Notes: generated by a model from the sequence alone, not told the origin. A stretch of DNA of 64,000 bases from a virus (IMGVR_UViG_3300032236_001082:32001-96000), one strand, 5' to 3'. Positions 23,808-64,000 are shown, counted from the stretch's first letter. Made by a program: numbers and translations.

Positions 23808-23939
23808 TTTGTTTTAGCGTATCCTGTCTTCTTTTTGTTCATTGATCCTGGCAACTTCCCGCCAGGTCCTTTGTGATTCTTTTGTCGAATCTCTAAAGCT
23901 TTTTTGATTTTTTCAGTCTTATTTCCCATGATTCTCCTA

Positions 23940-24773: not shown

Positions 24774-24998
24774 TTAGTTACTTGATTGGGATGGCTTTTG
24801 ATTGATGTACTCCCGCTCATCAATAATTTCGTATGCTTGATTATCAAGCTTTTCTTGGTTTTTATTGTAATGATGACCACAAAACATTAATTCTCCGCTT
24901 ATTAATTTAACTAAAACAAAAGCTTGAGAACCACATGCATCACATCTATCAATTACATTTAATGTACGATCTGCTTTTTCTTGTGTCATTGTCATCAT
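24774..24998 (-). CDS. Actinobacterial-type small Zn-binding protein (DRCDxC...FCGHH)
   Basis: Start trimmed to ATG 24998 because upstream part is tRNA-Lys. Confidence 0.75.
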   Translation of the reverse strand: MMTMTQEKADRTLNVIDRCDACGSQAFVLVKLISGELMFCGHHYNKNQEKLDNQAYEIIDEREYINQKPSQSSN

Positions 24999-25039
24999 AG
25001 GTATAGTATATCCTTTTATATTAGTAGTTACAAGTTTAG

Positions 25040-25112
25040 TGCCTCCAGTAGGGCTCGAACCTACGACCCGCAGATTAAAAGTCTGCTGCTCTACCAACTG
25101 AGCTATAGAAGC
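25040..25112 (-). tRNA. tRNA-Lys(TTT)
   Basis: Cloverleaf; GCAGA-CTTTTAA-TCTGC; GGTTCGAGCCC. Confidence 0.93.
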
Positions 25113-25244
25113 AAGTGATCAATACAGGTAAAGGGAAACTACTGTATTGATCGTGATACTGCTGGTTTACCCTAGCCTTTTGCCAGCCTATTGTCCACGT
25201 CTGGAGTCGGACCCATTTTCTTCCGCCACGCAATAGTTGTATCG

Positions 25245-25317
25245 TACCCCAAGACAGATTCGAACTGTCGCTGTATGGATTTTAAGTCCACTATCTCTAC
25301 CGCTGGATTACTGGGGC
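25245..25317 (-). tRNA. tRNA-Leu(TAA), short variable arm
   Basis: TGGA-CTTAAAA-TCCA; T arm GACAG-TTCGAAT-CTGTC. Confidence 0.88.
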
Positions 25318-25318
25318 T

Positions 25319-25393
25319 TGGAGCCCCCCGTCAGGATTGAACTGACGACCTTCCGCTTACAAGGCGGATGCTCTACCACTGAGCTAGGGAGGC
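25319..25393 (-). tRNA. tRNA-Thr(TGT)
   Basis: CCGC-CTTGTAA-GCGG; encoded CCA. Confidence 0.93.
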
Positions 25394-25549
25394 GGATGCC
25401 AACCGTGATAAAAAACCGTTGGCTGTAGATACCTATCTAATTCTGCAGAGCAATCTCCATCGTGCTGAACCACTTCGTATGATGCAGTTAGAACTCAATT
25501 TATCGGTATCCAACATCTCAGAATAAATTGTTCAGATTTATTCTTTGAG

Positions 25550-25622
25550 CCCCCTCGGCACGATTCGAACGTGCGACGCAGGCCTTAGAAGAGCCTCGCT
25601 CTATCCTCTGAGCTACGAAGGG
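25550..25622 (-). tRNA. tRNA-Arg(TCT)
   Basis: AGGCT-CTTCTAA-GGCCT. Confidence 0.92.
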
Positions 25623-25629
25623 AAACCTA

Positions 25630-26142
25630 TTATGCAGAAAGAATTTTACTTAAAGAATTAACTGTTGCTGCAATTCTTCCGATATCACGCAACTGTTCTA
25701 CTGTATATCCTTCTTGCTTGAGAGTCTCATAATGCGCCTTAACGCAGAAATGACACTTACCAATAATTGATGAAGCTAATGAATATGCTTCAAACTTAGC
25801 TTTTGTTGTACCGCCGTGTGATGCAATAGCATTCATTCTTAACTGTGCTGGTAAACCAGACAAAGCAGAATCATCCGCCATTTCAACGTAAGGATACCAC
25901 ACATTGTTTTGAGCCATCAAGGCACCAGCAGTCAAAGCAGCATTTTTTTCTACTTCATCCGTTGCGCCTGCAGCAATAAATGCCAAAAGCTTTCCATTTC
26001 CTGTTGCAAAAGCAGCAGCAATTGCTAAATAAGTAACTTGATCTGGGTCAATCGTAGAACGATTGACCACAGCATCTAAGTTCAACTTAATATCTTTTGC
26101 ATATTCTGGCAAAGAATCTTTTAGTTGATCAACCCAAGACAT
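25630..26142 (-). CDS. ahpD: Alkyl hydroperoxide reductase AhpD
   Basis: LPEYAKDIKLNL, MAQNNVWY, CHFC..AH. Confidence 0.92.
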   Translation of the reverse strand: MSWVDQLKDSLPEYAKDIKLNLDAVVNRSTIDPDQVTYLAIAAAFATGNGKLLAFIAAGATDEVEKNAALTAGALMAQNNVWYPYVEMADDSALSGLPAQLRMNAIASHGGTTKAKFEAYSLASSIIGKCHFCVKAHYETLKQEGYTVEQLRDIGRIAATVNSLSKILSA

Positions 26143-26678
26143 TAGAGAGTTGCCCCTCCAAGTGGACGATTGCAAGCACAAAGCTCACCAGTCTGAAGTG
26201 CATCCAAGACACGAAGTGCCTCATCCGCATTGCGACCAACATCTAGGTTGTTTACTGTAATATGCTGAATTACATTCTCTGGGTCAACAATAAATGTTGC
26301 ACGGAGTGTAACTCCTTGTGGGGTAATAATGCCCAAGTCTGATGAGAGTTCACGTGCTGAGTCAGCAAATGCCCATGAGTTTGTCTTAGCAAGATCTTCA
26401 TGGTTATTACGCCAAGCGACCTTACAGAACTCATTATCAACTGAACCTGTCATAAGTACCGCATCACGGTCATTAAAATCATTAACTAACTTGTCGTATG
26501 CAACAATTTCTGTTGGACATACAAACGTAAAATCTTTTGGATAAAATGCAATAATCTTCCACTTTCCAGCGAAAGAATCTTGATTCAAGTTCTCAAAAGA
26601 AGAATCATCATACGCCAATGCTCCTGGCTTAACACCAACAACATTGAAGTTTCCTAACTTATCTCCTACGGTCTTCAT
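26142..26678 (-). CDS. ahpC: Peroxiredoxin AhpC
   Basis: FYPKDFTFVCPTEI, GRN.DE.LRVLDALQT.ELC.CN. Confidence 0.95.
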   Translation of the reverse strand: MKTVGDKLGNFNVVGVKPGALAYDDSSFENLNQDSFAGKWKIIAFYPKDFTFVCPTEIVAYDKLVNDFNDRDAVLMTGSVDNEFCKVAWRNNHEDLAKTNSWAFADSARELSSDLGIITPQGVTLRATFIVDPENVIQHITVNNLDVGRNADEALRVLDALQTGELCACNRPLGGATL

Positions 26679-26710
26679 ATTTCTCCTTATATAAGAAGGC
26701 TTGCGCCTTG

Positions 26711-26784
26711 CGATCTCAACGGGACTTGAACCCGCAACCTCTACCGTGACAGGGTAGCGATCTAACCAATTGATCTATGAGATC
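26711..26784 (-). tRNA. tRNA-Asp(GTC)
   Basis: CTACC-CTGTCAC-GGTAG. Confidence 0.92.
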
Positions 26785-26788
26785 CTAG

Positions 26789-26862
26789 TGGAACAGCTCG
26801 GACTTGAACCGAGGATTACCGAATTATGAGTTCGGGGCTTTAACCAACTAAGCTACTGTTCC
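26789..26862 (-). tRNA. tRNA(CAT) (Ile2 or Met)
   Basis: CCGAA-CTCATAA-TTCGG. Confidence 0.88.
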
Positions 26863-26864
26863 TT

Positions 26865-26941
26865 TGGTAGAATGTTTGCGAATTGAACGCAACTCTAGGG
26901 AGGATATAAGCCACCACCTGACCACCAGCCAGCCACATTCC
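26865..26941 (-). tRNA. Atypical tRNA-like gene, anticodon TAT (Ile)
   Basis: Acceptor GGAATGT/ACATTCT+ACCA, T arm TTGCG-TTCAATT-CGCAA, loop CTTATAT. Confidence 0.65.
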
Positions 26942-26942
26942 G

Positions 26943-27015
26943 CTGGGGTGACAGGGATCGAACCTGTGACACTTCGATTAACAGTCGAATGCTCTGCCTG
27001 CTGAGCTACACCCCA
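26943..27015 (-). tRNA. tRNA-Asn(GTT)
   Basis: TTCGA-CTGTTAA-TCGAA. Confidence 0.92.
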
Positions 27016-30112: not shown

Positions 30113-30295
30113 TTACTCCTTTCCTTTTGGATTTCTTAATCTATATGTTGCGACCCACAAGAAGATAGAGATAAGTATTGCATCTCCAACAACTGTTTTT
30201 GCAGATCCCGTCAAAACAAGCCATGCAGAGAATAGACCAACGAAAGTCCAAATCTGATTGGCTAGGTCTGACATTAAACCTTTAATTAGTTTCAT
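30113..30295 (-). CDS. Small two-TM membrane protein
   Basis: ORF track; coupled to 30292 gene. Confidence 0.6.
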   Translation of the reverse strand: MKLIKGLMSDLANQIWTFVGLFSAWLVLTGSAKTVVGDAILISIFLWVATYRLRNPKGKE

Positions 30296-32919
30296 TTGCC
30301 GAACCTCCTTCTAAGTGACGCTATTTGTCCTACAACAAGCGTAGTCACTAAGATTTTTTTAGCTTTCTTTCTTGTTACAGGCGACATATCGTTTCCAATA
30401 TTTGCCATCGCAACAAATGCTTGATTTACTGCTTCTATGCCAGGAACTGCAGCAAGTGCACCAGTTACTGGGGTTAAAACAACAGGGACAGCAATGTCTG
30501 GAGCATTAAAGCTAGTACCGCCTGGTTGTCCGATAAATGTATCAGCAGTTGTGATTGCATCTGCAGGTATTGGTAAACCAGATCCTGGAGGTGGGGGTGG
30601 AGGCGTAAGCTTTCCATCTTCTCCAACAACTTGAGGTGCACTCTTAGTACCAAAAAATTCAATACCACCATTTTCTACTCCTTTTACATCTTGTTGTATG
30701 TGTGGCACTAAAGCTTCTTTTGGGGCTTCCTTAACTACTGTATCTGAAAGTTGATCTGGGCTATTTGGCTTTACTCCAATAGCGTCTTGCTTTGCTTTAT
30801 CATCCGCCGCTTTTTGTGCATCAGCTTTAGCCTGTGCATCTTTTTGTGCTTGAATAGCAGCATCTGCTTGTGCCTTGGCATCTTTAGCTGCTTGATCCTT
30901 AGCTGCTTGATCCGCTGCAATTTTGTCTGCTTGGGCTTTTGCAGCATCTGCTGCAGCTTTAGCATTTGCTTCTTCTTGAGCTTTTTGAGCAGCCTCATCA
31001 GCTGCTTTTTGTGCAGCTATTGCAACATCTTGTTCTGCTTTTGCTTTTGCGTCCGCTTCAGCTTTTGCAGCATCTGCTGCTGCTTGTGCGTCTTTTGCTG
31101 CCTGAATTTTTGCATCTTCTGCAGCTTTATCTGCTGCTGCTTGAGCTTCTTTAGCTGCTTGTTCGGCAGCAATACGTGCATCTTCTGCAGCTTTAGCTTC
31201 TGCTGCAGCTTTCTCTTGTGCAGCTTTTGCATCTGCAATTGCTTGCTCAGCAGCTATTCTTGCAGCATCTGCTTTTGCTGCATTTTCTGCAGCAATTCTT
31301 GCTCTTTCTTCTGCAGCTGCCTTTTCTTGTGCAGCTTGTGTTGCTGCTTGTTCGGCAGCAATACGTGCATCTTCTGCAGCAATTCTTTGTTGCTCTGCAT
31401 AATAATCCGTTGTCACTTGAGCAGCATTTGTCATTGCAGTTACTGCTTCATTTACTTGTGTTGTTGCATTATTTGCTAAAGAGTCAGCAGTTTGCAATGC
31501 AATGGTTAGGTTTTGGTTTGCAGTTGTAAGGTTTTGCTGTTCTGTTGTGAGGTTTTGTTGAGCAATGGTTAGGTTTTGTTGAGCAGTATCATATGCTGCT
31601 TGAGCTGTATCAATAACAGACTGTTGTGCATCTACAGCATGGATAGCATCTTGCCAAGCTTGATAAGCAGCATTTCTTATTGCTAGCTGTGTGTCGTAGG
31701 CTGACTGAGTAGATATTACATTGGCTTTTGCTGAATCTGCTGCTGCAAGCTTAACTGGATCAACCGTTGTTGTATTTGTGCCAAACGCTGATGCACCAGG
31801 AGTTGTAAAATAACCAGTACCATCTGCTCTAAATATCATCCACCCAAGTGTACAGCTAGCACCCCCGCCATTTTCATAATACCAAATTACAAAGTCTTGA
31901 CTCTTATCAGTTGTAGTGTTATAAATTGGTGAATATGGACTCCAGGTTGTACCTTGATCACGCCAGTTGTTAATTGCTAATACGCCATCAACATACATTT
32001 TTGACCCGTCATCTGATGAGACTGCGTATTTAACAGCAACTGCTTCATTGGGTACCGTAATGGTTCCTTCATATTTTACAATAACGTGATCAGACAATCC
32101 AGAATTAAGTATTTGACCACTCCCCCAGTTTGCAGCAATATTAGGTAAAGTTATTACCTCTACTGGGGTCTGGTTAGCAATCACAGGAGCAGCCCCGTTA
32201 GTGGCACGATAAACAGTTGCCGTTACACCATTAGTGGTAACAGTTATAGTTCCATTATTTTGTAAATCAGTTACTGCATTTGTTAAATTAGTTTGTGCTA
32301 TTTGAACATTGCTCGTAGCAGTTCCAAGATTAGAATTTTCTGTATAAAAACCAGACTCTGCTGTTCTTTGAGTATCTTTAAGATCAGGCAATTTTGCAAC
32401 CTCAGATGTTAAAGTAGTTTGAGCATTATCAACAGTAACGGTTGCCGTGTCTACAATTGATTGCGCTATTACTACTGTTGCTGTTTGTGTCTCTACATTT
32501 GTTTGAGCAGCTATTACAACTTGCACAGCATTTTGTGCTGCAGATATAGTAGCTGTTGCTGATTCAATTTTAGGAGTAACCGCAGCCACTGCTGTAGCCA
32601 TTGGTTCCTGAGTCACTGCAATAGATATAGCGGTAGATGTATCCGTATTGGGTACATTTGCCTGAATAGTGTTTATTATGGCTTGAGATTGCTCCTGGGA
32701 AGCAGTTTGAAGTGCCACCTGGGCTGTTTCTATCTTAGCTTGAACTGTTGACACTGTGACTGTGGCAGTGTCTATAATATTTGTTGGGAGATCTGTTATA
32801 GGCTGGGATGTAGTAATAGGAGCAACCACCTCATCAGCATGAGCTCTATTTGAAGGGAAAAGAAATAGCAACCCTGTAGTAAACAAGGTTGCTATTATAA
32901 ATTTAATCTTTCTGGTCAA
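30292..32919 (-). CDS. Secreted PA14-domain protein with long Ala-rich coiled coil
   Basis: Signal peptide (AHA-D); SDDGSKMYVDG...W.DQ...YYENGGG; TolA-like AAEK repeats. Confidence 0.8.
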   Translation of the reverse strand: MTRKIKFIIATLFTTGLLFLFPSNRAHADEVVAPITTSQPITDLPTNIIDTATVTVSTVQAKIETAQVALQTASQEQSQAIINTIQANVPNTDTSTAISIAVTQEPMATAVAAVTPKIESATATISAAQNAVQVVIAAQTNVETQTATVVIAQSIVDTATVTVDNAQTTLTSEVAKLPDLKDTQRTAESGFYTENSNLGTATSNVQIAQTNLTNAVTDLQNNGTITVTTNGVTATVYRATNGAAPVIANQTPVEVITLPNIAANWGSGQILNSGLSDHVIVKYEGTITVPNEAVAVKYAVSSDDGSKMYVDGVLAINNWRDQGTTWSPYSPIYNTTTDKSQDFVIWYYENGGGASCTLGWMIFRADGTGYFTTPGASAFGTNTTTVDPVKLAAADSAKANVISTQSAYDTQLAIRNAAYQAWQDAIHAVDAQQSVIDTAQAAYDTAQQNLTIAQQNLTTEQQNLTTANQNLTIALQTADSLANNATTQVNEAVTAMTNAAQVTTDYYAEQQRIAAEDARIAAEQAATQAAQEKAAAEERARIAAENAAKADAARIAAEQAIADAKAAQEKAAAEAKAAEDARIAAEQAAKEAQAAADKAAEDAKIQAAKDAQAAADAAKAEADAKAKAEQDVAIAAQKAADEAAQKAQEEANAKAAADAAKAQADKIAADQAAKDQAAKDAKAQADAAIQAQKDAQAKADAQKAADDKAKQDAIGVKPNSPDQLSDTVVKEAPKEALVPHIQQDVKGVENGGIEFFGTKSAPQVVGEDGKLTPPPPPPGSGLPIPADAITTADTFIGQPGGTSFNAPDIAVPVVLTPVTGALAAVPGIEAVNQAFVAMANIGNDMSPVTRKKAKKILVTTLVVGQIASLRRRFGK

Positions 32920-34100: not shown

Positions 34101-34793
34101 TTACAATGTGCCCATAATATTTGGATCAGTAATGATTTCTTCTGTTAAGAATATCTCCCCGTCCTCTTCTTGAATGGATGGCTCATTAATATCTATGTCT
34201 TTTTTAGGGCTTAAAAAGCATATAAAATTCTTTCTTTCACCAGAAGTGACCTGTAATACTTGATGAGGCAAAGTGTGGTCACCCTCAAATATAATTAAAC
34301 TATTTTTTTTAGGTTTATATTTAATTTGCTGACGTGGAAAATTAAGTTCTCCGCCTTCGTAGTTATCCGTAAAGTATAATAAAGCTGATCTACAAACCCT
34401 ATCGTACTTTTTAGCTTTTAATTCATTTTTTTGAGATATATAATGATTGTCCATGTGTAAATCGCCAACGCCATCTTTATACATGGCTGCATACATGGCA
34501 TGTTTTATTCCAAATGGTTCATTATATATATCTGACACTACCTCGGATATTGAAGTGCATATGCTGGTAAATAAATCTAAACCCATATTATATTCGGGGT
34601 TGTCTCCATATTCTTCAAAAGAATTTGTAGAGTTTATATAACGTTGAGAGGGTCCGTATTTTATATTTGGATAGCGATCAAATTCTTTCAAATTGCTATC
34701 GAAGCATTTGGAAAGAAAATCAGACGTGGCATCTGATATAAAATCTTCTACAACGTAAAGTTTATTAAATTCTGTTTTTATTTCTTTTTTCAT
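34101..34793 (-). CDS. 2OG-Fe(II) oxygenase (P4H-like)
   Basis: HMD, YFTDNYEGGELNF, HQV...R. Confidence 0.88.
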   Translation of the reverse strand: MKKEIKTEFNKLYVVEDFISDATSDFLSKCFDSNLKEFDRYPNIKYGPSQRYINSTNSFEEYGDNPEYNMGLDLFTSICTSISEVVSDIYNEPFGIKHAMYAAMYKDGVGDLHMDNHYISQKNELKAKKYDRVCRSALLYFTDNYEGGELNFPRQQIKYKPKKNSLIIFEGDHTLPHQVLQVTSGERKNFICFLSPKKDIDINEPSIQEEDGEIFLTEEIITDPNIMGTL

Positions 34794-38316: not shown

Positions 38317-38826
38317 TTAATCCTTTTTGTGACTATATACGACAAAAGTGATTGTTCTTCTTTCATCAGTCAGTGTTGTTCTTGTGCCATGTGGCAGATC
38401 TGATCTGTGAATTACCATATCTCTTTTGTTTGGATGAACCTCTACGCCCTCTTCTGGGTAATAAAGGTCTCCGCCTTCAAAATCAGTAAGATAAATTACT
38501 CCGCCCCACTCTTTGTTGTAACCAGACGTATCTGGGTTTGCATCATCACGATGTACATAGAAATGGTACCCATATGGAACCATCCAGTGAAGGAATAAAT
38601 CTGCCCAATGACCTGAGCCTTCTAGCAACTTATTAACCTCGTCAATACATTCCTGTAAAACTGGAGTACCAATTAGATAAATGTTATCTTCTTTTCTAAG
38701 GTGAAGGGAGCCTTCTTCTGAATTTTCAGAATCTATTCGTAATCTATCGCATAGGTCTTCACTTAAAAAATTACGAAAAATATAAGAACCATCTAAAACT
38801 TTTTCTGCTTTACTAAAATCAATCAT
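38317..38826 (-). CDS. 2OG-Fe(II) oxygenase
   Basis: HRD, YLTDFEGGDL, HGT...R. Confidence 0.85.
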   Translation of the reverse strand: MIDFSKAEKVLDGSYIFRNFLSEDLCDRLRIDSENSEEGSLHLRKEDNIYLIGTPVLQECIDEVNKLLEGSGHWADLFLHWMVPYGYHFYVHRDDANPDTSGYNKEWGGVIYLTDFEGGDLYYPEEGVEVHPNKRDMVIHRSDLPHGTRTTLTDERRTITFVVYSHKKD

Positions 38827-39427
38827 TAGCTTCCCAATCCCATGTATTTTGATCTCCGTTTTCTTTAATAAACTCTGCATAGATATCGTCATGATTTTTC
38901 CAAATATAAAATGTCATGGCATATCTATCTTCAGATTGTACTCTATTTACAAAATGCCATATGTTTGCATCATGTAAAACAAGGTCACCCTTTTTACCTT
39001 TATACTTAACTCCAATATCAGGATAAACTAGATCCCCGCCTTCAAAATCATTTAAATACAAGACACCAGCATAAAATAATCTACCTTCTGCATTAAAGTC
39101 TCTTCCCTTCATGCTATCTTCATGAGGTCCCCAGCATTTGTTATACTGCACGTTGGTGATGCACAAATCGCTGTACTTGACTCCTGGCCCTGGCTTCAAA
39201 AGATTATTTAATAATTCTTTTTCATCTTCCATAGGCTTGCCTTCTGCCAAGATTTTAACAAAAGTATCTACTTTAGGTATAACATAAGAATTGTGTTGGC
39301 TAGAACTTTTTGATTTATCCATAGTAATGCCACACTGCTCATCAGAAAAAGCGTTATGAAAAACATAAACCATGTCATGTATTTTTTCAGCTTTACTAAG
39401 ATCAACTATATCAATAGCATAATTCAT
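38819..39427 (-). CDS. 2OG-Fe(II) oxygenase
   Basis: HED, YLNDFEGGDL, HFV...R. Confidence 0.85.
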   Translation of the reverse strand: MNYAIDIVDLSKAEKIHDMVYVFHNAFSDEQCGITMDKSKSSSQHNSYVIPKVDTFVKILAEGKPMEDEKELLNNLLKPGPGVKYSDLCITNVQYNKCWGPHEDSMKGRDFNAEGRLFYAGVLYLNDFEGGDLVYPDIGVKYKGKKGDLVLHDANIWHFVNRVQSEDRYAMTFYIWKNHDDIYAEFIKENGDQNTWDWEAND

Positions 39428-42671: not shown

Positions 42672-43469
42672 CTATTTATTTCTATAGTATTTTGGGTCTT
42701 GCCAAGATGATTTAATTCTTTCTTCTTCCATCTTTTGCCAGACTTCCTTGCCGTACTTCTTTTCATTATCTAACCATTCTGGAGAGCCTTTATATTCCCA
42801 GAACCAAAACATCCTTAACAAATACTTATTACCAGTCTTAATCTTAAAAACACCATGATAATAGGGATCGCCTGAAGGAAATACAGTTATATCACCTGCT
42901 TTTGGTTTATATACAATTGTATCACCAGTTGTATCATCTAAAAATGAAATCTCCCCACCTTCATAGTTGTCATTAATATAAAGTGTAAAGGTTATAATAA
43001 ACTTATTACCAGGGCTATCCTTATCATATTCATGGTTGTCCGTATGAAAATTCATAGCATATGGCAAGCTATCATCTGACACATCATATTTCAAGAAAGA
43101 AATTCTTCCATCTTCCCACCTTGAATCTTCAAGGTCCCAAGTCTCAATATAATCTGGCCATTGCCCTACTGTTGACCAATCATCCATGTAGTCTTTTGTA
43201 ACTTTATAAAAAACATCATAGATTTCATTAATCATTTCTTTTTCTTCAAAATTAAAAGTGCCTGGCTTTTCTTCATTTTTTGTAATTGCTTTGGCAATTC
43301 TTTTTTTATCTTCACACATAGTCCCAAGATTAGACCATTTGCCCCAGCTTGTTCTATGATATGTTTCTGGAAGAGATTCAGTTTTTTTAATAGTCTCAAA
43401 CAAACTATTAATATCTTTAAAACAATCTCTATAGACCATTATCTTAGGCTTTAGTTGCTGTTTATTCAA
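42672..43469 (-). CDS. 2OG-Fe(II) oxygenase (P4H-like)
   Basis: HTD, YINDNYEGGEI, HGV...K. Confidence 0.88.
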   Translation of the reverse strand: MNKQQLKPKIMVYRDCFKDINSLFETIKKTESLPETYHRTSWGKWSNLGTMCEDKKRIAKAITKNEEKPGTFNFEEKEMINEIYDVFYKVTKDYMDDWSTVGQWPDYIETWDLEDSRWEDGRISFLKYDVSDDSLPYAMNFHTDNHEYDKDSPGNKFIITFTLYINDNYEGGEISFLDDTTGDTIVYKPKAGDITVFPSGDPYYHGVFKIKTGNKYLLRMFWFWEYKGSPEWLDNEKKYGKEVWQKMEEERIKSSWQDPKYYRNK

Positions 43470-43953: not shown

Positions 43954-44289
43954 TTATTTTTTATAGAATGGGCTGCTGTAATCTATATAGCCCACCTCTA
44001 GATTTCCTCTCGTACATTGGAACCCAAGTGCATCATCAGGTTTAAATCCATCATCTTCATACATAAGTTCAAAGCCAAACTCATCAGTTTCTCTGTTATA
44101 TGTAACGCACATAGCACTACCATTATTTGTTATAAAATCATTTGGCCAAACTTGCTCGTTAAGCAGTTCGTCAAACATGGAAGCTGGAACTGACAGCTTG
44201 CCGTTATGTTTTAATATAGCAACTAAAGCTGACGTAGCTCTGAGTCTTTGGAATACTTCTTCTAGCTGAGATTGATCTGCTTCTTTCAC
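43954..44289 (-). CDS. Hypothetical protein
   Basis: ORF track. Confidence 0.6.
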   Translation of the reverse strand: MKEADQSQLEEVFQRLRATSALVAILKHNGKLSVPASMFDELLNEQVWPNDFITNNGSAMCVTYNRETDEFGFELMYEDDGFKPDDALGFQCTRGNLEVGYIDYSSPFYKK

Positions 44290-45233
44290 TTTACATCTAC
44301 CCCATCAATATAAATTTCTTTGTTGACAAATAGTGGAGGATTTGGGTTATTTACATCTGGGGTGTTACCCTCAAAAACAACCTGTCTTCCTACCGAGCCA
44401 GAATCAACAACATTCTTAAGTCTTTCATTTTCTATCTCTAAAAATCTTGTTGGCCCGTAGATACGTATTCCATCCATCCACTTTTGAGTTATTGGTAGTC
44501 TAAGTATAGCAAATGTTCTTATAAAAATTTTACTCTCATCAGAAGTGACAGCCCTAGCACCATGCCAATAAGGTCTACCTGCGGGGAACACTGTTATATC
44601 GCCAGCTTTTGGCTTGTACACAATAAGACTTTTATTTTCTTCATCTACAAAGTCTATCTCACCGCCTGCATAATCATCGTTTAGATAAATTGTATAAGTT
44701 AATATCTGCTTGGGTCCTGGCTCATCATCTCTATGATTATGCCAATCAGTGTGAACTCCAATAGTGTATTTTGAATCAATGTTTTTTCTATGCTTTAGAA
44801 TTTCTAAAGTAGAAAGAACCATTTCATCGTCTTCTGTAGTTCCAATTGACCAATCATTAATTTTATAGGGCCATCTTCCAGACTCCGCATAATCTTTACA
44901 GTAGTCATCATGACATTTTAAAATAGCATCATTAAGCAACCTAAACCCTAAAGCCTGATTATCTTGCTCATCATTAGAGTTTGGATATCCCCAAATGCTT
45001 CTTGATCCATAAGTGTACCAAGGAGCCCAAGTAAATATAAGTGAACCATCTTCTCTTTTTTGTGGTTGTGGACCATGCTTATCTAAATAAGCTGAATCAT
45101 CTGGATTCGCATAGTCCATACCGCTAATAGATTGTTCTGAATTGCGAATTTCTTTTAATAGTAAAGCCAAGTCATCCTCAGAGAATGCTCCCCGATAAAC
45201 AGTAACTTGATCCATCACATTAATCTTTTGCAT
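44286..45233 (-). CDS. 2OG-Fe(II) oxygenase (P4H-like)
   Basis: HTD, YLNDDYAGGEI, HGA...K. Confidence 0.88.
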   Translation of the reverse strand: MQKINVMDQVTVYRGAFSEDDLALLLKEIRNSEQSISGMDYANPDDSAYLDKHGPQPQKREDGSLIFTWAPWYTYGSRSIWGYPNSNDEQDNQALGFRLLNDAILKCHDDYCKDYAESGRWPYKINDWSIGTTEDDEMVLSTLEILKHRKNIDSKYTIGVHTDWHNHRDDEPGPKQILTYTIYLNDDYAGGEIDFVDEENKSLIVYKPKAGDITVFPAGRPYWHGARAVTSDESKIFIRTFAILRLPITQKWMDGIRIYGPTRFLEIENERLKNVVDSGSVGRQVVFEGNTPDVNNPNPPLFVNKEIYIDGVDVK

Positions 45234-56134: not shown

Positions 56135-56674
56135 TTACTCTATGATACCATCATTTCTATTATAAATGAAGCACTGGATGGTTATTCTAAACCTATCGGT
56201 TGTTTTGACTGGGGCTGTTCCATGATCCAGCCCGCCTTCATTTACTGTGCACAAATTAAAGGATGGTAGGATAGCTTTCCACTCTTCCCCATCTTGCCAC
56301 ATAAACATACCGCCATCATCATATTCCCAAACCCTGTTTAAATAGACAGTAACAGCTTTGCCAAAATGGTTATCGGTATGCCTTGGGATATAGGAATCTT
56401 TTGTCCAAACATATAAATTTGCCACACTGACTGGCATATGTTTATTTGGATCAAATATATTTGCTGCCTCCAGTGCACTTTCAAATTTACCAAGATCTTC
56501 TTTATTCATTTCAATTACAAATACAGAAGTACTGTCGTCTCTAGCATCTATAGGCCAAGCCCAATTTGATGACACCCTCGTTATTTCTGTGTTTTTACCA
56601 TACATAACATCATTTGCGTAATTATAAAGCTTGTCAGCAAAATCTTCATCAAGTAAATTTTTATAGATCAGCAT
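56135..56674 (-). CDS. 2OG-Fe(II) oxygenase (prolyl-hydroxylase-like)
   Basis: HTD, YLNR.W...DGG, P.FN, HG...R.TIQ. Confidence 0.88.
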   Translation of the reverse strand: MLIYKNLLDEDFADKLYNYANDVMYGKNTEITRVSSNWAWPIDARDDSTSVFVIEMNKEDLGKFESALEAANIFDPNKHMPVSVANLYVWTKDSYIPRHTDNHFGKAVTVYLNRVWEYDDGGMFMWQDGEEWKAILPSFNLCTVNEGGLDHGTAPVKTTDRFRITIQCFIYNRNDGIIE

Positions 56675-57224
56675 ACTTGCCTCTTTTGCCATCTTTCCTA
56701 TAATTTTTCTTATCAATGGAATAAGCTATACCTGCTCTTGGAACCGTTAAACTTTTAACCCCGTGTTTCATGGAGTCTGGAAGAAATATCACATCGCCAG
56801 GATTTAATGTATAACTAACTTCTGTTCCATCAAAACGAAACACAGTCCAATAAGTTTCTCCAACACAGCTCCAATGAATTTGCTCACATGGATCTTCATG
56901 TGGTCCCAAGCCACTTCCTTCGCCTAGAACTTCTGTCATAATAATGGCTGGCTCATCCCATAATGTATCTCCCCATACTTCATAGAGATTTGATCTAAAA
57001 TAAGAAAAAGCTTCGTTATCAGAAAGAATTGGCGATCCGTCATAATCAAAACTAATAGAAAGCTTAAAGTCATACTCCCAACGAGTATCAACAGCAACTT
57101 TAGATTTTTCTCTAAAGTCTAAAAATTCATCAAAAGACACAACATTTGGAAAAGCGTTCCTAAAAACAAACTCTTCTTGTCCGTCTTTTACTTCATTAAA
57201 TTTATCTATAAATTCTTTATTCAT
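56661..57224 (-). CDS. JmjC/cupin-domain oxygenase
   Basis: HED...IHW.C.G...W...LNPGDVIFLP....HGV...R. Confidence 0.8.
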   Translation of the reverse strand: MNKEFIDKFNEVKDGQEEFVFRNAFPNVVSFDEFLDFREKSKVAVDTRWEYDFKLSISFDYDGSPILSDNEAFSYFRSNLYEVWGDTLWDEPAIIMTEVLGEGSGLGPHEDPCEQIHWSCVGETYWTVFRFDGTEVSYTLNPGDVIFLPDSMKHGVKSLTVPRAGIAYSIDKKNYRKDGKRGKYADL

Positions 57225-58188
57225 TAATATTCCAATACTTTTCTGACACTTCAGCATATACCTGGCTGTAGCTTTCCTTATTATACATCTCTATAAATTT
57301 AAAATCAGTATTTGAAACAGCATAAGAATCTAACTCGTGCTTATAAGAATAGTTAATCTCTGATTTAATTAAATAAAACTTTGTAGATTCTTTGGCAAAT
57401 ATTCCATTTAAAAATGCTGTGCCTGCTATGCCAGCTATATGGGTTGCATTATACATATAAGATGCTTGCTCTACAACAGTCTTCCCGCTCATTTCAAGCA
57501 CTTCATAGCCTTCAGATTTAAAGAAATTTTCTATAGCATCATGATAGAACATTGGTGCATGCCTTAATGGGTCTTCACCATTATTAAATTTTTCAATTAA
57601 TTCACTTCTTTTTTTCCTGCTTAAAAATATTTTTTTAGGTAAAGATTGATCTTCTTTTAATTTACTGGAGTAGTATGTTTTCAGCTCTTTGTTTATTAAT
57701 TCATTGTCATGCTGGAATAAATCTTTAAATATATAATTATCTATTTTTAATCCTGGAACAAATCTTGATGAATAAAAAAAAGTAATTAAATTTTCAAATA
57801 CTATTTCTGTATTAAAAAATTCTTCTGGGGTCATAACAATATCTTTATCTAATTTAAAAAGATTTAAAGATTCTTTTCCAATTACACTAAAACTATTTGA
57901 GTCATGAGCATTGCTTGGTAAGACTTGATTTAACCAAAGTATATTAATATCTGGATCTATATTATTTTTATAATACAACATTGGACCAATACTTTCTTGC
58001 AAGTAGTGTCCATAATAATAAGGATTTGCAATTACCATCCATTTGCCAGATAAGTGCTTATTACTTTTACCTTTATTTATTATAAGATTTTTAAATGTAT
58101 AAATAGGACCGATGCCTTGATGTTTTTCAATACTCATCCCGTCATAGTTTGGATATTCCAGACCAGCTGCACCGACTATTTCATGCAT
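57217..58188 (-). CDS. Glycosyltransferase family 61 (DUF563)-like
   Basis: YGHYLxE, KIFLSR, GYE.......EQ...M..A..I.G..G.AFLN.IF. Confidence 0.75.
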   Translation of the reverse strand: MHEIVGAAGLEYPNYDGMSIEKHQGIGPIYTFKNLIINKGKSNKHLSGKWMVIANPYYYGHYLQESIGPMLYYKNNIDPDINILWLNQVLPSNAHDSNSFSVIGKESLNLFKLDKDIVMTPEEFFNTEIVFENLITFFYSSRFVPGLKIDNYIFKDLFQHDNELINKELKTYYSSKLKEDQSLPKKIFLSRKKRSELIEKFNNGEDPLRHAPMFYHDAIENFFKSEGYEVLEMSGKTVVEQASYMYNATHIAGIAGTAFLNGIFAKESTKFYLIKSEINYSYKHELDSYAVSNTDFKFIEMYNKESYSQVYAEVSEKYWNINE

Positions 58189-58190
58189 TT

Positions 58191-58796
58191 TTAATCAAGC
58201 CAACTTACTACAGCATATCTATGTCCATTATAAACATTATTTACTGAGTGGTTATATACATAAGAAGATGGGAATACCAATAGATCATTGGCTTTAGGTT
58301 TATATATGACTCCAAATCTAGGAAAAATAATTTCTCCGCCGTCGTAATCATCGTTTAAATAATAAATTACAGAAACAGTTCTTGGAAATTCTAAACAATC
58401 ATCCAAATGATTTCTAAAGTATTCTCCTTCTCCATAATTTAAAATACTCCATAAATCATGCGATCTAGTCTCTACACCAAAATCACCCTTGTAATGTTCT
58501 TCTACTGGGGTGAAGTATTTGTACATAACAGAGCCAAGTTTTATTTGTAAATCTTCCCATTTATCTTTTCCAGTTTCTGGCGGGTTTTTGGAAAGCTCGT
58601 ATGGAATTCCAGAAGTCTTTAACTTTCTAACGTGATAATCAACTATGTTGTATCCATCACTTATTATCATGGGCTCCCCCCATTGAAAATTTTCTGATTC
58701 AAACAAAGATCTTATTTCTTTGTACTGTTCATCAAAATTATCAATAACATTTTGATACACACGAAGGCCAGGGCCTATCTCTTTATATTCCATCAT
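58191..58796 (-). CDS. 2OG-Fe(II) oxygenase (prolyl 4-hydroxylase-like)
   Basis: Y..GEYF..HLD, R.VS..YYLNDDYDGGEI, FPS...HSV..V..G.RY.VVSW; start trimmed. Confidence 0.9.
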   Translation of the reverse strand: MMEYKEIGPGLRVYQNVIDNFDEQYKEIRSLFESENFQWGEPMIISDGYNIVDYHVRKLKTSGIPYELSKNPPETGKDKWEDLQIKLGSVMYKYFTPVEEHYKGDFGVETRSHDLWSILNYGEGEYFRNHLDDCLEFPRTVSVIYYLNDDYDGGEIIFPRFGVIYKPKANDLLVFPSSYVYNHSVNNVYNGHRYAVVSWLD

Positions 58797-61140
58797 TTTC
58801 ATCCATTTCTTGTTGTATAATTTCATCAATAATTTCAGATCCTGGCACAGGAAATACCGCAAAGCCTGGAGGGCTGAAGAACCCTGGTGGCGCAAAGAAC
58901 CCTGGTGGGGTGAAGAACCCTGGCGGGGTAAAAAAACCTGGTGGGGTAAAGAACCCTGGTGGGGTGAAGAACCCTGGTGGGGTGAAGAACCCTGGTGGCG
59001 CAAAGAACCCTGGTGGGGTGAATGTACCTGGGTAGACAACAAAGCTTGGTGGTGGAGAAACCGCAGGTGTGACCGCAGGTGTGACCGCAGGTGTGACAGA
59101 AGTAACTGATGGAGTTACCGCTGGAGAAACGTTTCCTCCTCCTGGGTATACAACAAAGCTTGGTGGTGGAGAAACCGCAGGAACTACGGCTGGAGTGACG
59201 GCTGTAACAGCTGGTGTAACGGATGTTACAGAAGGTGTAACAGCACCAGGATTTGGTCCACCACCAGGATAAACAATTCCTGTTACAGATGGCGTGACAG
59301 ATGTAACGGCTGGGGTAACGGCTGTGACAGCAGGCGTAACAGATGCTGCTGCTGATGCAATGATTGTACTACTGTAATAGTAATGTGTAGTTCCTGATAA
59401 ATCAACAACAGTATCTCTAACTGCAAAAATGTATGGAGGGTATGCTGCATCTAGTGGCATAACTACATAATATCCGCTAGTGTCTAGTGGCACTCCCGAC
59501 CCACTGTTTGGTGTAAAAGTATTTCCAACCAATGCTGAAGTAACGCTAGCATAATTTTGATAAGTTCCACCACTCCAAGTTATAGCAGTTCCTACAACAC
59601 CAGATCCTTGAATTGTTGGAGAAGAAGACTGTGACAAAACTGGCGGGACAACACTAATATCATTTGATTGTGTAGACAAAGAGCCATAAGCGTTTGTAGC
59701 AGTTACAGTACAATGCACACCAAAGTTTGGATAAAGACTATGAAAATTAGGTGCAAATGTATAACTGCTTGATGTAGCTCCTGGCAATGGTTTGTATACA
59801 TATCCAGTTGGGCTAAAGTAGTACCATTGATAGGTATAAGTAATAGGAGTTGCCCCACTATATGTGCCAGGACTTACTGTGGCAGTAGCACCTTCATAAA
59901 CAGTGCTTGGTGACGCAACTGGGGCTGATATTAAAGTTAATTGCGGACTAGTTCCATCCATAACTGAAACGATATCGGTATAAGCTACGACACCATTGTT
60001 TCCAGTAGCTACTGGGTTATTAGCTGTTACCTTACAAAGTAAACCAAAATTTTTAAATAAAGAATTAAAATTCCATGGAGGAGAATAAGAACTTGTATAG
60101 GCTCCAATACTTTGATAGGTAAGATCACTTTGTCTAAGGTACTGCCAATCATACGACAGTGTTATTGGCGCATCTCCCGTCCAAGTTCCACCATTTGTAC
60201 TAAAAGTTGTTATTCCTGCAGTTGGATCTACTCCACTAGGGGTATATGTTATAGAAGGTTTAGTTTTATTTACTGGAATTGAAGACGCTGTAAACAATCC
60301 ATAATTTGTAGTTAAAGAAATACCCTGAGTTAAACCAGAAAAATCTGTACCTGAATTAAATTGAGTTTCTACAGCATAAAAATACATACCACTATTTGTT
60401 GGGTCTTGTCCTAAATCAAAGTTTGCTATAGAGCCATAACTTGTTCCGTCTGAGGACTCATAGCTAATTTGACTAATTGTTTGATATACAGTTCCACCTG
60501 TTGTTCCAGGGGAAGAACTTCTATACAAAGTTATTGTTGATCTTGTAGTATCTGGAAGATAGCCAGCAGATGAATCCCAGGTAGAGTTGTATTGAAGTAT
60601 ATTTAAAATTTTTGTAAATGATGCACTGATGCTACGTGGTGGATTTCTATGCACAAATATTTGAATTGGTAGTGAGTTATCATCTCCAATAATATCTGTT
60701 GTTGTGGTATTAGCTTGAATATCAAACGTAATATAAGTTCCATCATAGTTAAAACTAGATGTACTTAAAGGAATGTTTACTGGGTTATTATAAGTTCCAG
60801 TGTCGCATGCAACGCCTAATTGATTAGGAATTGGAGAAGAAAAAACGGTGTACTGATAGTTTGTTATAACATATCCGTTTGGAACCCAAACACCTTTTTG
60901 CCCATAAAGGCTTGTGCTGGTTATTATGATATCATTTCTGGCGTATGCTGTTGCGCCATCTGATGCTGAAGTAGAAAAATAAGGAGATGTTGTAGTATAA
61001 GGTCCTGATTTTGGCCAGAATTGAACCCAACCTTTTGCAGCCTTTACAAATCCTTTTTTAACTTTTGCCCAGCCAGAATCGGTTTTTACTTTAAAATTGG
61101 TAACGTTTTGCCAGCTACCGCCATTAACTCTTAAACCCAT
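58783..61140 (-). CDS. Ig-like-domain minor tail/virion protein with TPAV and PPGFF repeats
   Basis: Repeated P.I....G....G.W.....Y.W Ig motifs; follows tail fibre gene. Confidence 0.78.
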   Translation of the reverse strand: MGLRVNGGSWQNVTNFKVKTDSGWAKVKKGFVKAAKGWVQFWPKSGPYTTTSPYFSTSASDGATAYARNDIIITSTSLYGQKGVWVPNGYVITNYQYTVFSSPIPNQLGVACDTGTYNNPVNIPLSTSSFNYDGTYITFDIQANTTTTDIIGDDNSLPIQIFVHRNPPRSISASFTKILNILQYNSTWDSSAGYLPDTTRSTITLYRSSSPGTTGGTVYQTISQISYESSDGTSYGSIANFDLGQDPTNSGMYFYAVETQFNSGTDFSGLTQGISLTTNYGLFTASSIPVNKTKPSITYTPSGVDPTAGITTFSTNGGTWTGDAPITLSYDWQYLRQSDLTYQSIGAYTSSYSPPWNFNSLFKNFGLLCKVTANNPVATGNNGVVAYTDIVSVMDGTSPQLTLISAPVASPSTVYEGATATVSPGTYSGATPITYTYQWYYFSPTGYVYKPLPGATSSSYTFAPNFHSLYPNFGVHCTVTATNAYGSLSTQSNDISVVPPVLSQSSSPTIQGSGVVGTAITWSGGTYQNYASVTSALVGNTFTPNSGSGVPLDTSGYYVVMPLDAAYPPYIFAVRDTVVDLSGTTHYYYSSTIIASAAASVTPAVTAVTPAVTSVTPSVTGIVYPGGGPNPGAVTPSVTSVTPAVTAVTPAVVPAVSPPPSFVVYPGGGNVSPAVTPSVTSVTPAVTPAVTPAVSPPPSFVVYPGTFTPPGFFAPPGFFTPPGFFTPPGFFTPPGFFTPPGFFTPPGFFAPPGFFSPPGFAVFPVPGSEIIDEIIQQEMDENDGI
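58858..59019 (-). repeat. 9 x 18-bp tandem repeat encoding (T/A/S)PPGFF
   Basis: CCTGG recurs every 18 nt from 58865 to 59009. Confidence 0.92.
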
Positions 61141-61149
61141 TTTATTCCT

Positions 61150-64000
61150 TTAGTATGTTACGTACAGGTCTCCAACAAAGCCTGTACCCGTTGAACCAAC
61201 TGCTGGACCCGATCCGCTGTTTACATAAATATTTCTAACGAAGCCTATCGTTCCTACTATATCAGTTGCGTTTCTAACTCTCATGTTACCATTTAAATAA
61301 ATATATCCATTAGGACTATTTCCTATAATAACGTCACTACTGTCCAAGTATATCACGCCAGTACTTATAGCTGCAAATGATTGTCCAACTACCTGCTGAG
61401 TAATTACTCCATTATTATCCGCATGGTTCCAAATAGTTGAAGACCCATCTGGATCTATAGAAATAAGCGGAACTGCTCCTCTGCCTTGATTGCTACCAAA
61501 AACTTGAAAAGCTTTTGCTGTACTTAATACGGTGTATCCATTAGATGTAATTTGTCCGTTACCAAAAGAAGTAGTAGTATCAATAGCAGCTGCAGAAGCT
61601 GAGGTTTGATTAATTACTCCTCCACTGTTAGATGCACTGAATGTAACCAAAGAACCTAAAGCGGATGATCCAGCAGAATATGTCTGCAATTGAGCTCCTG
61701 CTGAATCTAAAGAAACATAAGAGTTAGATCCTTTAGATCTTAAATAGCTACTTGTGATTGTCCAACCAGTAGTATCACTTCCTATGTAACCTTCAGTTGC
61801 AGTTACTTTACCCTTTATTGTGGCAGAACTTGCTGTTACATTACCAAGATGATCCACAAAGAACTTAGGTATTGTATCTAAAGCTCCTACGCTTATTGCA
61901 TAACCATTTGAAGTGGAAGACCCGCCATAAATTCTAACACCATAATTATTTTGCGTTGCATTATAATCAGTTGGATAAGCAGTTATAGTTCCATTTGCAG
62001 AGCTTAATTCTAGCTGACCAGAATATATCTTTCCAGCTTTAACAATCCATGCTCCTGATGCTCCAGATAAACTTCCAAGATAAGCAGAGTTTGTAGCAAG
62101 GGTAACTCCATCTTCTCCTATAGGGCTAGATGATATTTGTGTTGTTACTGTTGAGCCATTTGGAGATGCTATGATACCCGCACCACCCATTTTTACATAA
62201 GCACTTCCTGGGCCATTTACAATTAAATAACCAGAAGATCCAATGGTAACGCTGCTGTTAAAATTAGAAGCTTGATTGACTGTTATGGAACCAGTAATGG
62301 TTGCTTTGCTTGCAGTGATGCTTCCATCTCCATAAACATAAAATCCAGTGCCTGCACTAATTAATGTGTCTGAGCCAACGCCACTACCTATAATTTGGAT
62401 GTTTCTTGCTACTACTGCTCCACCTGGTGTTACTGTAAACTTAGCTTGTGAGTCACCACCGCTTGTTGCAGACCCCGCCCAAAATGAATATGTGCCAGTA
62501 GCAGACATTCCTACGTAGTTTGAAGCAGATCCTAATGTATTTTGGATCTGAGTACTGTTGATTGACCAATCGGCAATTTTTGCATTAGTAGTTTCAAATG
62601 TATAACTAGATGCTCCTGGGTTTGTAATTATTGCAGTTGACGCTGGGGTTGAAGCTGTTGAACCATAATCAAAAGCAAATATACCAGAATAAGCTGATGT
62701 GCCATCTGGACCTTTATTGCCTGAAGGACCCAATACAATTCTTGAGCCTGTTGTTGCACTATTGCCAACAAATATTGATCCGCCACCACCAATTTGCACA
62801 GCATTTTGAATAACAGATATTGATGGGTTTGTTGGAGTAACTTGATATACTATAGAATTTTGCGAAGGAGAATCGTAAATATCATAGTATCTTAAAATCA
62901 AATAACCAGTTGCATATAAATTATCGAATACGCTTGCTGGGCCTGTGCCTGAATAAACCAAAGACTGCATGTGATAATTGCCAGCTGCTTGCTGAGTTAA
63001 ATTGTTGTTGACCGTAATCGTATATGGGCCAGAACCAGTTATAGAGGTAACCCAAGTATTTGTAGGAATACCAGTTCCAGTTATTGGATATCCAACATAG
63101 GTATTTACAGTCTTACCAGTTGGTAATGTAAATCCGCCATTTTCCATTGAAATTGAATTAACAACAAAAGTTTTTTGACCAGACGCTCCACCAGAAGCAA
63201 ATGTTGCATCCATATAATCTGGCATGTCAACTGTTGCGAATGATCCAGTTGGGTCAATAAAGAATTGATATACTTCACCATAAGATGCGCCAGTTGTTCC
63301 AAGAGCAAACTGTACGTTATAACCATCAATTACATTTGTGATAGTTGCTACTGGCACTACCGATCCTATAGAACTAGTTCTGCTAAATGTAGTTATATTC
63401 TGAACAGTAGAGCTTTCTGTTCCATACTGGGATTGCAAAACAAACGTTCCGCTATAAGATTTATAGTATTGTCCAAACTGTGCGAATATTAAATTCTTAG
63501 GGATTGTAAATGATGTTTCTGTTTTACTTGCTATAGTGTGATAAAAGAAGCCAGATAGATTATTAGCTGCAGTTGGAACTAATTTAACTTTAACTGTTAC
63601 TGGTTTATTTAAATCTGAATCTACTATAGAGGGAAGTGTATAGGTTACTACTACATCATCTCCCGCCCCGTTATTTGAAAATGATGCTGAGACATTAGTG
63701 GCATTTGCTGGTGGTAAATTGTTTGCTGGAAGCAGAGCAGTTGGTGTTGCTTCTACGTAATTTGAATAAGCAGACTTTGCACCAGTTGTTTCCATGAACC
63801 AAGCTCTTACATATCTATGAGCCCCGTCTGCAGCAAATACAGAAGCTGGGCTTATGGTCTTTGGCTCTCCTACCTGAACCCAACCAACGCTTGATGCAGC
63901 AGCAGCTGTGTCCACCTGAGCAGATGTCAATCCAGTGGTCGGGTAAACAAACTCTTGAATGATTTCAGATAAAAAATTGCCATTTGGAGTAGCTTTTGCT
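61150..64000 (-). CDS. Large tail fibre/minor tail protein (5' end outside window)
   Basis: Gly/Ser/Thr-rich, FN3-like and G.I.GW.I repeats; frame open to window edge. Confidence 0.8.
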   Translation of the reverse strand, partial: AKATPNGNFLSEIIQEFVYPTTGLTSAQVDTAAAASSVGWVQVGEPKTISPASVFAADGAHRYVRAWFMETTGAKSAYSNYVEATPTALLPANNLPPANATNVSASFSNNGAGDDVVVTYTLPSIVDSDLNKPVTVKVKLVPTAANNLSGFFYHTIASKTETSFTIPKNLIFAQFGQYYKSYSGTFVLQSQYGTESSTVQNITTFSRTSSIGSVVPVATITNVIDGYNVQFALGTTGASYGEVYQFFIDPTGSFATVDMPDYMDATFASGGASGQKTFVVNSISMENGGFTLPTGKTVNTYVGYPITGTGIPTNTWVTSITGSGPYTITVNNNLTQQAAGNYHMQSLVYSGTGPASVFDNLYATGYLILRYYDIYDSPSQNSIVYQVTPTNPSISVIQNAVQIGGGGSIFVGNSATTGSRIVLGPSGNKGPDGTSAYSGIFAFDYGSTASTPASTAIITNPGASSYTFETTNAKIADWSINSTQIQNTLGSASNYVGMSATGTYSFWAGSATSGGDSQAKFTVTPGGAVVARNIQIIGSGVGSDTLISAGTGFYVYGDGSITASKATITGSITVNQASNFNSSVTIGSSGYLIVNGPGSAYVKMGGAGIIASPNGSTVTTQISSSPIGEDGVTLATNSAYLGSLSGASGAWIVKAGKIYSGQLELSSANGTITAYPTDYNATQNNYGVRIYGGSSTSNGYAISVGALDTIPKFFVDHLGNVTASSATIKGKVTATEGYIGSDTTGWTITSSYLRSKGSNSYVSLDSAGAQLQTYSAGSSALGSLVTFSASNSGGVINQTSASAAAIDTTTSFGNGQITSNGYTVLSTAKAFQVFGSNQGRGAVPLISIDPDGSSTIWNHADNNGVITQQVVGQSFAAISTGVIYLDSSDVIIGNSPNGYIYLNGNMRVRNATDIVGTIGFVRNIYVNSGSGPAVGSTGTGFVGDLYVTY

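Follow-up and report, generated by a model that had tools for sequence, protein, structure and literature searches.

Proline-rich repeat tails and their neighboring oxygenase and glycosyltransferase genes: a candidate tailoring system for fiber proteins of a freshwater phage

Few unexplained genes are as common in aquatic phages as those for tandem 2-oxoglutarate (2OG)-Fe(II) oxygenases, for which no substrate was given when they were described in 2010 (PMC2938197). What might such enzymes act on when they lie directly behind a tail protein that ends in proline-rich repeats? The question is raised by positions 56,135 to 61,140 of a 64,000-nucleotide stretch of viral DNA (IMGVR_UViG_3300032236_001082:32001-96000; hereafter the window), in which the gene for a 785-residue repeat-tailed protein is followed by genes for a prolyl-hydroxylase-type oxygenase (P4H_A), a GT61-family glycosyltransferase, a JmjC/ROX-like cupin oxygenase and a second prolyl-hydroxylase-type oxygenase (2OG_A2). 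The original prediction saw here an operon encoding a virion protein together with the enzymes that decorate its PPGFF repeats, and comparative evidence supports that reading in part. The answer that we would give, and to which we assign about an even chance, is that freshwater tailed phages hydroxylate, and some of them glycosylate, the proline polymers of their own fibers, with enzyme sets matched to repeat types (P4H_A/2OG_A2 to TPxV, 2OG/DUF6065 to PPxFF). That the local enzymes act on the 785-residue protein seems to us fairly probable, with lower confidence attached to the exact residue and sugar.

The repeat-tailed protein (58783..61140, minus strand), which on account of the minus-strand gene order is the last of the tail module, has an Ig-like N-terminal part of about 600 residues and a C-terminal part of 189 residues made up of low-complexity, proline-rich tracts. 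The first of these, a Thr/Pro/Val tract of 111 residues (residues 597-707; 59020..59352), contains 10 TP[AS]V units in three blocks, the last two of which are each closed by a copy of SPPPSFVVYPG. It runs into nine xPPGFF hexads (residues 708-761; 58858..59019), eight of them perfect and the final one degenerate (SPPGFA), and the protein ends in a 24-residue tail (residues 762-785; 58786..58857) that consists of VFPVPGS and an acidic, helix-like stretch. The open reading frame (ORF) and both kinds of repeat are as originally described, save for that last hexad. The DNA of the hexads has a period of 18 nt, with 8.8 copies and 84% matches (Tandem Repeats Finder), and the hexads are separated from one another by synonymous codon differences, which argues that the repeat is kept at the protein level. 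The Ig-domain label fared less well: the protein itself has no Pfam match to an Ig domain and the Atlas leads to Ig are weak, and what stands behind the label is a set of distant homologues that bear IG_AIR9/SCAB-Ig. Its position in the tail module and these Ig-like relatives suggest that the product is a virion protein. In P0005, a syntenic orthologue with 34% identity, the C-terminus is formed by (xPPNF)n. A collagen-like triple helix was considered and rejected, as there is no Gly-X-Y and the hexads provide one Gly per six residues; the collagen analogy that had been drawn for them fails also in the many relatives that use Gly-free PPFF units. Further rejected as artefacts of the repeat DNA were a 283-residue, TTG-started ORF reaching to 59042, which would be a long reading of P4H_A in the repeat frame, and two ORFs with EEPWW- or SPHQGS-type translations (58810-59272, plus strand, and 58827-59042, minus strand).

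Four genes follow on the same strand, with borders that overlap or lie 2 nt apart, in agreement with the predicted coordinates. P4H_A (211 residues; 58191..58826; PF13640) starts within the end of the repeat gene, its start codon being the ATG at either 58826 or 58802; it is followed by the GT61 gene (323 residues; 57217..58188; PF04577), the cupin gene (187 residues; 56661..57224; JmjC_2; start at M12) and 2OG_A2 (179 residues; 56135..56674; weak PF13640; start at M15). The same genome encodes a second repeat protein outside the window, P0001 (388 residues; genome positions 13514-14680), with three FN3 domains and 11 xPPGFF hexads, which is preceded by an Mtd_N-type fiber protein and has the VFPVPGS tail in common with the 785-residue protein. 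Downstream of P0001 lie, in order, a 240-residue gene, a GT60-like gene (PF11397, the family of the Skp1-Hyp GlcNAc-transferase), a 2OG oxygenase gene, two DUF6065 genes and four more 2OG oxygenase genes. The array of this second locus, cluster B, comprises seven enzymes, five PF13640 oxygenases and two DUF6065 proteins, and the GT60-like gene sits between the repeat gene and the array. The 240-residue product encoded between P0001 and the GT60-like gene (P0002; L010:12792-13514, minus strand) has no Pfam match; homologues of it occur in L140 (E 3e-71), where GT61 and radical SAM genes are the neighbors, and in L258, where the cupin is.

Whether repeats and enzymes belong together was approached from both sides. 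A scan that started from the motif, with back-translated PPGFFxPPGFF against viral contigs, gave at least 119 loci. Among the matches listed, an enzyme homologue followed the repeat gene at no more than 1.5 kb in 82 of the 88 loci with room, and lay upstream of it in none of 77; the order of the array was fixed (2OG_B1, DUF6065, 2OG_B2 to B5). The tandem PPGFF motif is nearly confined to viruses, there being just 16 single matches in prokaryotes across the genomes of 185,579 species. In the reverse direction, a scan that started from DUF6065 covered the best 80 of at least 561 relatives, and a Pro/aromatic polymer was encoded upstream of DUF6065 in 52 of the 54 loci that had upstream room. In 22 of those 52 there was no PPGFF in the stretch scored, and PPFF, PPHF, PPLFF or PPSFF units were found instead; the constant parts are therefore the Pro-Pro and the aromatic pair. 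DUF6065 gave no tblastn match in 50,697 deposited phage records. With more than 150 phage loci, the co-occurrence of repeats and enzymes is strongly positive in both directions, and the pairing recurs across hundreds of phage fragments.

The local oxygenases, for their part, keep other company. Homologues of 2OG_A2 were found in 14 loci at 42-45% identity, 13 of them assessable, and in 12 of the 13 a P4H_A-type gene lies directly upstream (phmmer E 1e-41 to 1e-59). Immediately before this pair comes, in 10 of the 12, a fiber-type protein with (TPVAP)n, (VVTP)n, (PVN)n, (PT/PA)n or (PFFPP)n, and in an eleventh (L298) a (VSPVG)n protein is encoded two small genes upstream, against a baseline for such proline tracts of about 10% of ORFs in the 2OG_A2 loci. 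These tracts look like the VTPx tract of the window and not like its hexads. The supposition that the local enzymes are partners of xPPGFF was not supported, xPPGFF being tracked by cluster B and TPxV-type linkers by P4H_A/2OG_A2; on the strength of the linkage scans, the target of the local pair is probably the Thr/Pro/Val tract and that of the distant array probably the hexads. A few kb upstream of some P4H_A/2OG_A2 pairs there are also collagen-like Gly-X-Y proteins of about 243 residues (L289:1298-2029, L290:3145-3876, L293:3625-4347 and L295:847-1584), which are possible extra hydroxylase targets.

The properties of P4H_A are those of a prolyl-hydroxylase-type oxygenase. It matches PF13640 with 57.1 bits (cut-off 27; E 3.6e-15), and its closest sequence relatives in the PDB, namely PHD2, the Bacillus anthracis P4H, PiuC and P3H1, are all prolyl hydroxylases, with which its HxD, distal His and Arg (in GHRYAVV) can be aligned. 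H140, D142 and H193 are invariant across 12 genomic paralogues, most of which have a basic residue, Arg or Lys, in the 2OG-binding position as well. The nearest matches in deposited phages are distant ones, 2OG oxygenases of cyanomyoviruses. These PDB relatives and the linkage to proline-rich tracts hint indirectly that P4H_A may hydroxylate peptidyl proline. For 2OG_A2 a sequence search of the PDB gave no match; the iron triad is kept, and PF13640 is present in five of seven relatives.

The GT61 enzyme scores 40.9 bits against PF04577 (cut-off 27), and its predicted model (pLDDT 85.6) has a single confident fold match, POMGNT2 (E 6e-8, probability 1.0, TMq 0.45-0.50). As a single query it gave no match in viral contigs, and an alignment-based search brought up distant relatives only, in viral and metagenome contigs. 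These adjoin 2OG or DUF6065 genes in five of five loci and a radical SAM/SPASM gene in four of the five (L140-L143), the fifth contig starting at GT61 itself. Upstream sequence is available for three of the loci, and in two of these it encodes small (PPVV)n or poly-Pro proteins. In such small proteins (L140:17-589, L143:2409-2777 and neighbors) the (PPVV)n, or a stretch of about 48 prolines, gives way to a Cys-rich end, and they precede radical SAM/SPASM, GT61, 2OG and DUF6065 genes. To judge from the gene neighborhood, the acceptor of GT61 may be a protein or glycopeptide and its donor an NDP-sugar.

For the cupin, the family is clearer than the protein's own profile score. Its model (pLDDT 89.5) is best matched by the ribosomal protein hydroxylases YcfD, NO66 and MINA53 (TMq 0.59-0.64), with the Pseudomonas putida EF-Tu prolyl hydroxylase also among the fold matches; H109, D111, H154 and R163 are invariant in the family, for which 152 representatives were found, and all 30 aligned members match JmjC_2 (E up to 0.01, best 1e-9). 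A marginal sequence match to 3-hydroxyanthranilate dioxygenase was rejected, the family keeping HxD..H..R and not the Glu ligand of that enzyme.

The locus can be compared with four syntenic relatives (L139, L151, L152 and L153), in which minor tail, small gene, fiber, a variable last tail gene, two small genes, phosphoesterase and DnaB follow one another. Within or at the end of the last tail gene there is (xPPNF)n in L139, (PFFPP)n in L152 and L153, and (PT)n in L151. The 1323-residue last tail protein of L152 (L152:13739-17710, plus strand) has two (PFFPP)n internal linkers between repeated domains and a Cys-rich knot at its end. In L151 the last tail gene, with its (PT)n tract, is followed by a GT60 gene (E 9e-38). 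Glycosyltransferases recur beside proline-rich tails, as the predicted association of such an enzyme with the tail would have it. The genomes G006, G007 and G009 carry a large oxygenase array elsewhere. In G008 (L247:3222-10346) the orthologue of the FN3 protein (P0175) has (TPFGF)n, with one Pro per unit, followed by a Hint-like domain, and the slot before the portal gene holds eight other genes and neither 2OG nor DUF6065; the orthologue in G009 has a (PFFPP)n polymer and then the array. This contrast, a single one, fits the Pro-Pro unit as a requirement of the array, and the matching of repeat type to enzyme set, together with the other cassette in G008, suggests a modular tail-tailoring slot. 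One gene of the G008 slot is APS-kinase-like (PF01583, E 5e-18), and other tailoring chemistry, such as sulfation, may be encoded there.

The ends of the polymer proteins add to this picture. Among 100 distinct polymer proteins from the motif-scan matches listed, about 38 run into a domain of 120-230 residues and 35 end within 45 residues after the polymer. The first residue of the longer domain is Cys or Ser (in aligned examples mostly Cys, with His-Asn at the end), and its profile has a bacterial intein-like domain as best PDB match (E 7e-7); one relative has an S74 intramolecular chaperone domain in its place. Such self-cleaving ends suggest that the mature proteins would often terminate in the polymer. 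At L015:8643-9167 and L012:1064-1588 (both minus strand), as in the roughly 38 proteins just mentioned, a Pro-Phe polymer leads straight into a Hint/BIL domain of about 170 residues with a C[IVL]xxDT start and a His-Asn end, after which there are 1-7 residues without a C-extein nucleophile, and this suggests either self-cleavage or transfer of the polymer C-terminus onto another molecule.

Taken together, these observations allow a working model to be proposed, in which the end of the tail-gene module would be an operon of substrate and tailoring enzymes. P4H_A and 2OG_A2 would hydroxylate residues of the Thr/Pro/Val tract, most likely proline, since no other residue is shared by every linked tract, and GT61 would then put a sugar on the new hydroxyl or on Thr. 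The hexads would be modified in trans by the seven-enzyme array of cluster B, and the JmjC/ROX-like enzyme, whose link to the 785-residue protein is weak, may add another hydroxylation. What would result is a hydroxylated, partly glycosylated and extended linker or stalk on a fiber-type virion protein, extensin-like in kind, which would be stiff, hydrophilic and protease-resistant. What the analysis establishes is the sequences, the families of the enzymes, their intact catalytic residues, the order of the genes and the repeated occurrence of the pairing; the target residue, the chemistry, the sugar, the virion location and the benefit to the phage are inferred.

A number of points weigh against the model and need to be stressed. 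The four syntenic relatives are without P4H_A, GT61, cupin and 2OG_A2 at the equivalent position, and their tails stay proline-rich all the same; the block is not conserved beside the orthologous tail gene. Because of this absence and of its low GC content (0.325 for the block and 0.283 for GT61, as against 0.41 for the tail gene), the block is considered dispensable, and it is probably an acquired, lineage-specific insertion. With 13 PF13640 matches in the whole genome, part of the adjacency within this single genome could be due to chance, and kinship among many of the scanned loci makes the counts look more independent than they are. A homologue of the GT60-like gene is present in two of the 119 motif loci listed, and most polymer cassettes are without a glycosyltransferase. 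All four enzyme families are those that had been guessed, with P4H_A and GT61 above the Pfam cut-offs; 2OG_A2 (24.2 bits against PF13640, cut-off 27) and the cupin (17.5 bits against JmjC_2, PF08007, cut-off 22) fall below theirs. The evidence that places the 785-residue protein in the virion is gene order and domain types. The link of the cupin to proline-rich loci is weak: one of its 11 relatives lies near P4H_A-like genes, and the other 10 are elsewhere, with no proline tract or oxygenase nearby, 8 of them about 3 kb from genes that match ORFs of this same genome at 23606-26629. PF13640 enzymes, moreover, have other substrates, among them EF-Tu, ribosomal proteins and molecules that are not proteins.

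Several of these points are what one would expect if the four genes were morons, that is, host-directed or metabolic enzymes acting on EF-Tu, ribosomal proteins or small molecules, with GT61 working on a host or phage glycan, at a junction that tolerates insertions. The low GC and the absence of the block from the four relatives agree with this, as do the fold matches of the cupin to ribosomal protein and EF-Tu hydroxylases, the unrelated contexts of its relatives and the secondary-metabolite roles proposed for cyanophage dioxygenase arrays (Iyer et al. 2010, PMC2938197). Insertion tolerance alone, however, hardly yields a linkage of P4H-type, DUF6065 and GT61 genes to proline repeats that is both directional and reciprocal, and in G008 the array and the Pro-Pro motif are lost together; we therefore regard morons as an unlikely explanation. 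The co-variation in G008 and the reciprocal co-occurrence argue for a functional tie, and this also bears on the plainest view of the tracts, namely that they are extended spacers left untouched by the neighboring enzymes. Pro/Thr-rich linkers are frequent in fiber and cell-surface proteins without any modification, and L139, L152 and L153 have Pro-Phe tails with no enzyme at the equivalent position; yet these same relatives carry an oxygenase array elsewhere in the genome, and on balance we hold an unmodified linker to be quite unlikely.

The original prediction had itself named an alternative, in which the hexads would be excised as modified small peptides, as from the multi-core precursor of a ribosomally synthesized and post-translationally modified peptide (RiPP), with the large N-terminal part serving as leader or carrier. 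Repeated identical cores next to tailoring enzymes are indeed what such a precursor would look like, some relatives are only 60-150 residues long and end right after the repeats, and radical SAM/SPASM genes stand alongside GT61 in L140-L143. In the four-gene block, though, there is no protease, cyclase or exporter, and no cleavage motifs separate the hexads. The repeats are fused to FN3, Ig and fiber-type domains of 200-1300 residues and serve also as internal linkers between folded domains, and the self-cleaving C-terminal modules (Hint/BIL, S74) leave the polymer on the N-terminal domains. For a multi-domain protein of 785 residues, a RiPP-like fate strikes us as very improbable.

The wider setting is that of an uncultured freshwater (lake) siphovirus-like phage of about 112 kb, the window covering 32001-96000 in a virus record that is 112,158 bp long and has a terminal repeat of 123 bp. 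The minus strand holds nearly all genes, in the order portal, protease and major capsid protein, a 1980-residue tape measure, a 1480-residue minor tail protein, a 1176-residue fiber-like protein, the 785-residue protein, the four enzymes, two small genes, a metallophosphoesterase and DnaB. The fiber-like gene, which precedes the repeat gene, runs past the end of the window, so that the C-terminal 949 of its 1176 residues are encoded there (61150..63999, minus strand); its orthologues in L151-L153 have 67-70% identity and the same position. DnaB is 61% identical to the DnaB of Streptomyces BE-cluster phages, though the GC content of the window is 0.38. Neither the region (megablast, tblastn) nor the 785-residue protein had a match among the 50,697 deposited phage records, and a scan for promoters and terminators found no signal above shuffled expectation. 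Five more PF13640 paralogues, with HxD..H intact in all, are scattered on the minus strand across the replication/early region (window 11933-12475, 34101-34793, 38317-38892, 42672-43469 and 44286-45233). An 875-residue ORF (window 30292-32919, minus strand) bears a TPPPPPPGSGLPIP tract, and eight tRNA genes form two clusters (window 25039-27015, minus strand), one for Lys, Leu, Thr and Arg and the other for Asp, Met, Ile(tat) and Asn.

What makes the locus useful is that it and its relatives supply concrete candidate substrates, which can be synthesized as peptides and tested by mass spectrometry. If the model is true, bacteriophage particles would gain their first example of a hydroxyproline-type modification, dioxygenase arrays that have gone unexplained since 2010 would have a role, and protein hydroxylation and the glycosylation of hydroxyproline or Thr would join the known modifications of phage particles. 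It would also provide several small enzymes that differ in the repeats for which they are specific. A literature search found no paper on PPGFF-type polymers, on DUF6065 or on hydroxyproline in phage tail proteins.

The closest known arrangement in a phage is the gp41-gp54 region of Synechococcus phage Syn9, with tandem 2OG oxygenases, a JmjC protein of the MINA/NO66 type and a dUTPase-fold protein, all of unknown function (Iyer, Abhiman, de Souza, Aravind 2010, PMC2938197); its authors put forward metabolite synthesis and gave the array no substrate (PMC2938197). Like Syn9, the present phage encodes classical 2OG oxygenases and a cupin of the JmjC_2/ROX kind, but here the enzymes are tied to a proline-rich repeat protein. 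Compared with Syn9, the local block consists of two classical oxygenases, a JmjC-like protein and GT61, with no halogenase or DUF6065, and cluster B of five oxygenases and two DUF6065 proteins; the sequence matches to cyanophages are distant. Another virus-encoded case is the P4H of the chlorovirus PBCV-1, which hydroxylates prolines in (Pro-Ala-Pro-Lys)n repeats, 4-hydroxyproline having been reported absent from viral and bacterial proteins (review PMC3634087). Both enzymes are virus-encoded and of the PF13640 type, and in both cases there are virus-encoded proline-rich repeats; PBCV-1, in contrast, infects eukaryotic algae and has just one such enzyme, its repeat types are others, and its substrate and enzyme are not in an operon.

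The animal GT61 enzyme POMGNT2 modifies a mucin-like part of dystroglycan that is rich in Thr and Pro, and the phage GT61 shares with POMGNT2 and EOGT both the Pfam family and a fold match; it differs from them in length (323 against about 520 residues), with 8-9% identity and a TMq of about 0.5. Phage glycosylation as such has a precedent in the mycobacteriophages, where the targets reportedly include tail-tube proteins. In Che8 and its relatives, the decoration of the phage's own capsid proteins by phage glycosyltransferases was proven experimentally (Freeman et al. 2023, PMC10527164, as cited in PMC11256854), and the short account in PMC11256854 describes neither oxygenases nor proline repeats, unlike the system here. 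That experimental proof also sets the mycobacteriophages apart from the present system, which is known from sequence. The logic of hydroxylation followed by glycosylation is best known from eukaryotes: in plant extensins and arabinogalactan proteins (AGP), as in Dictyostelium Skp1, a P4H acts before a glycosyltransferase that modifies the hydroxyproline, and Gnt1 of the Skp1 pathway belongs to the PF11397/GT60 family. As in those systems, P4H-type enzymes and glycosyltransferases occur here together with proline-rich targets, and PF11397 GT60-like genes are found after P0001 and in L151. Unlike in them, the transferase of the window is a GT61, and not a GT60, GT8 or GT77, the setting is the prokaryotic cytoplasm, and the evidence comes from the genes. 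Should the model hold, the extensin-like combination of a proline-rich repeat, a P4H and a glycosyltransferase would have a counterpart in bacterial viruses.

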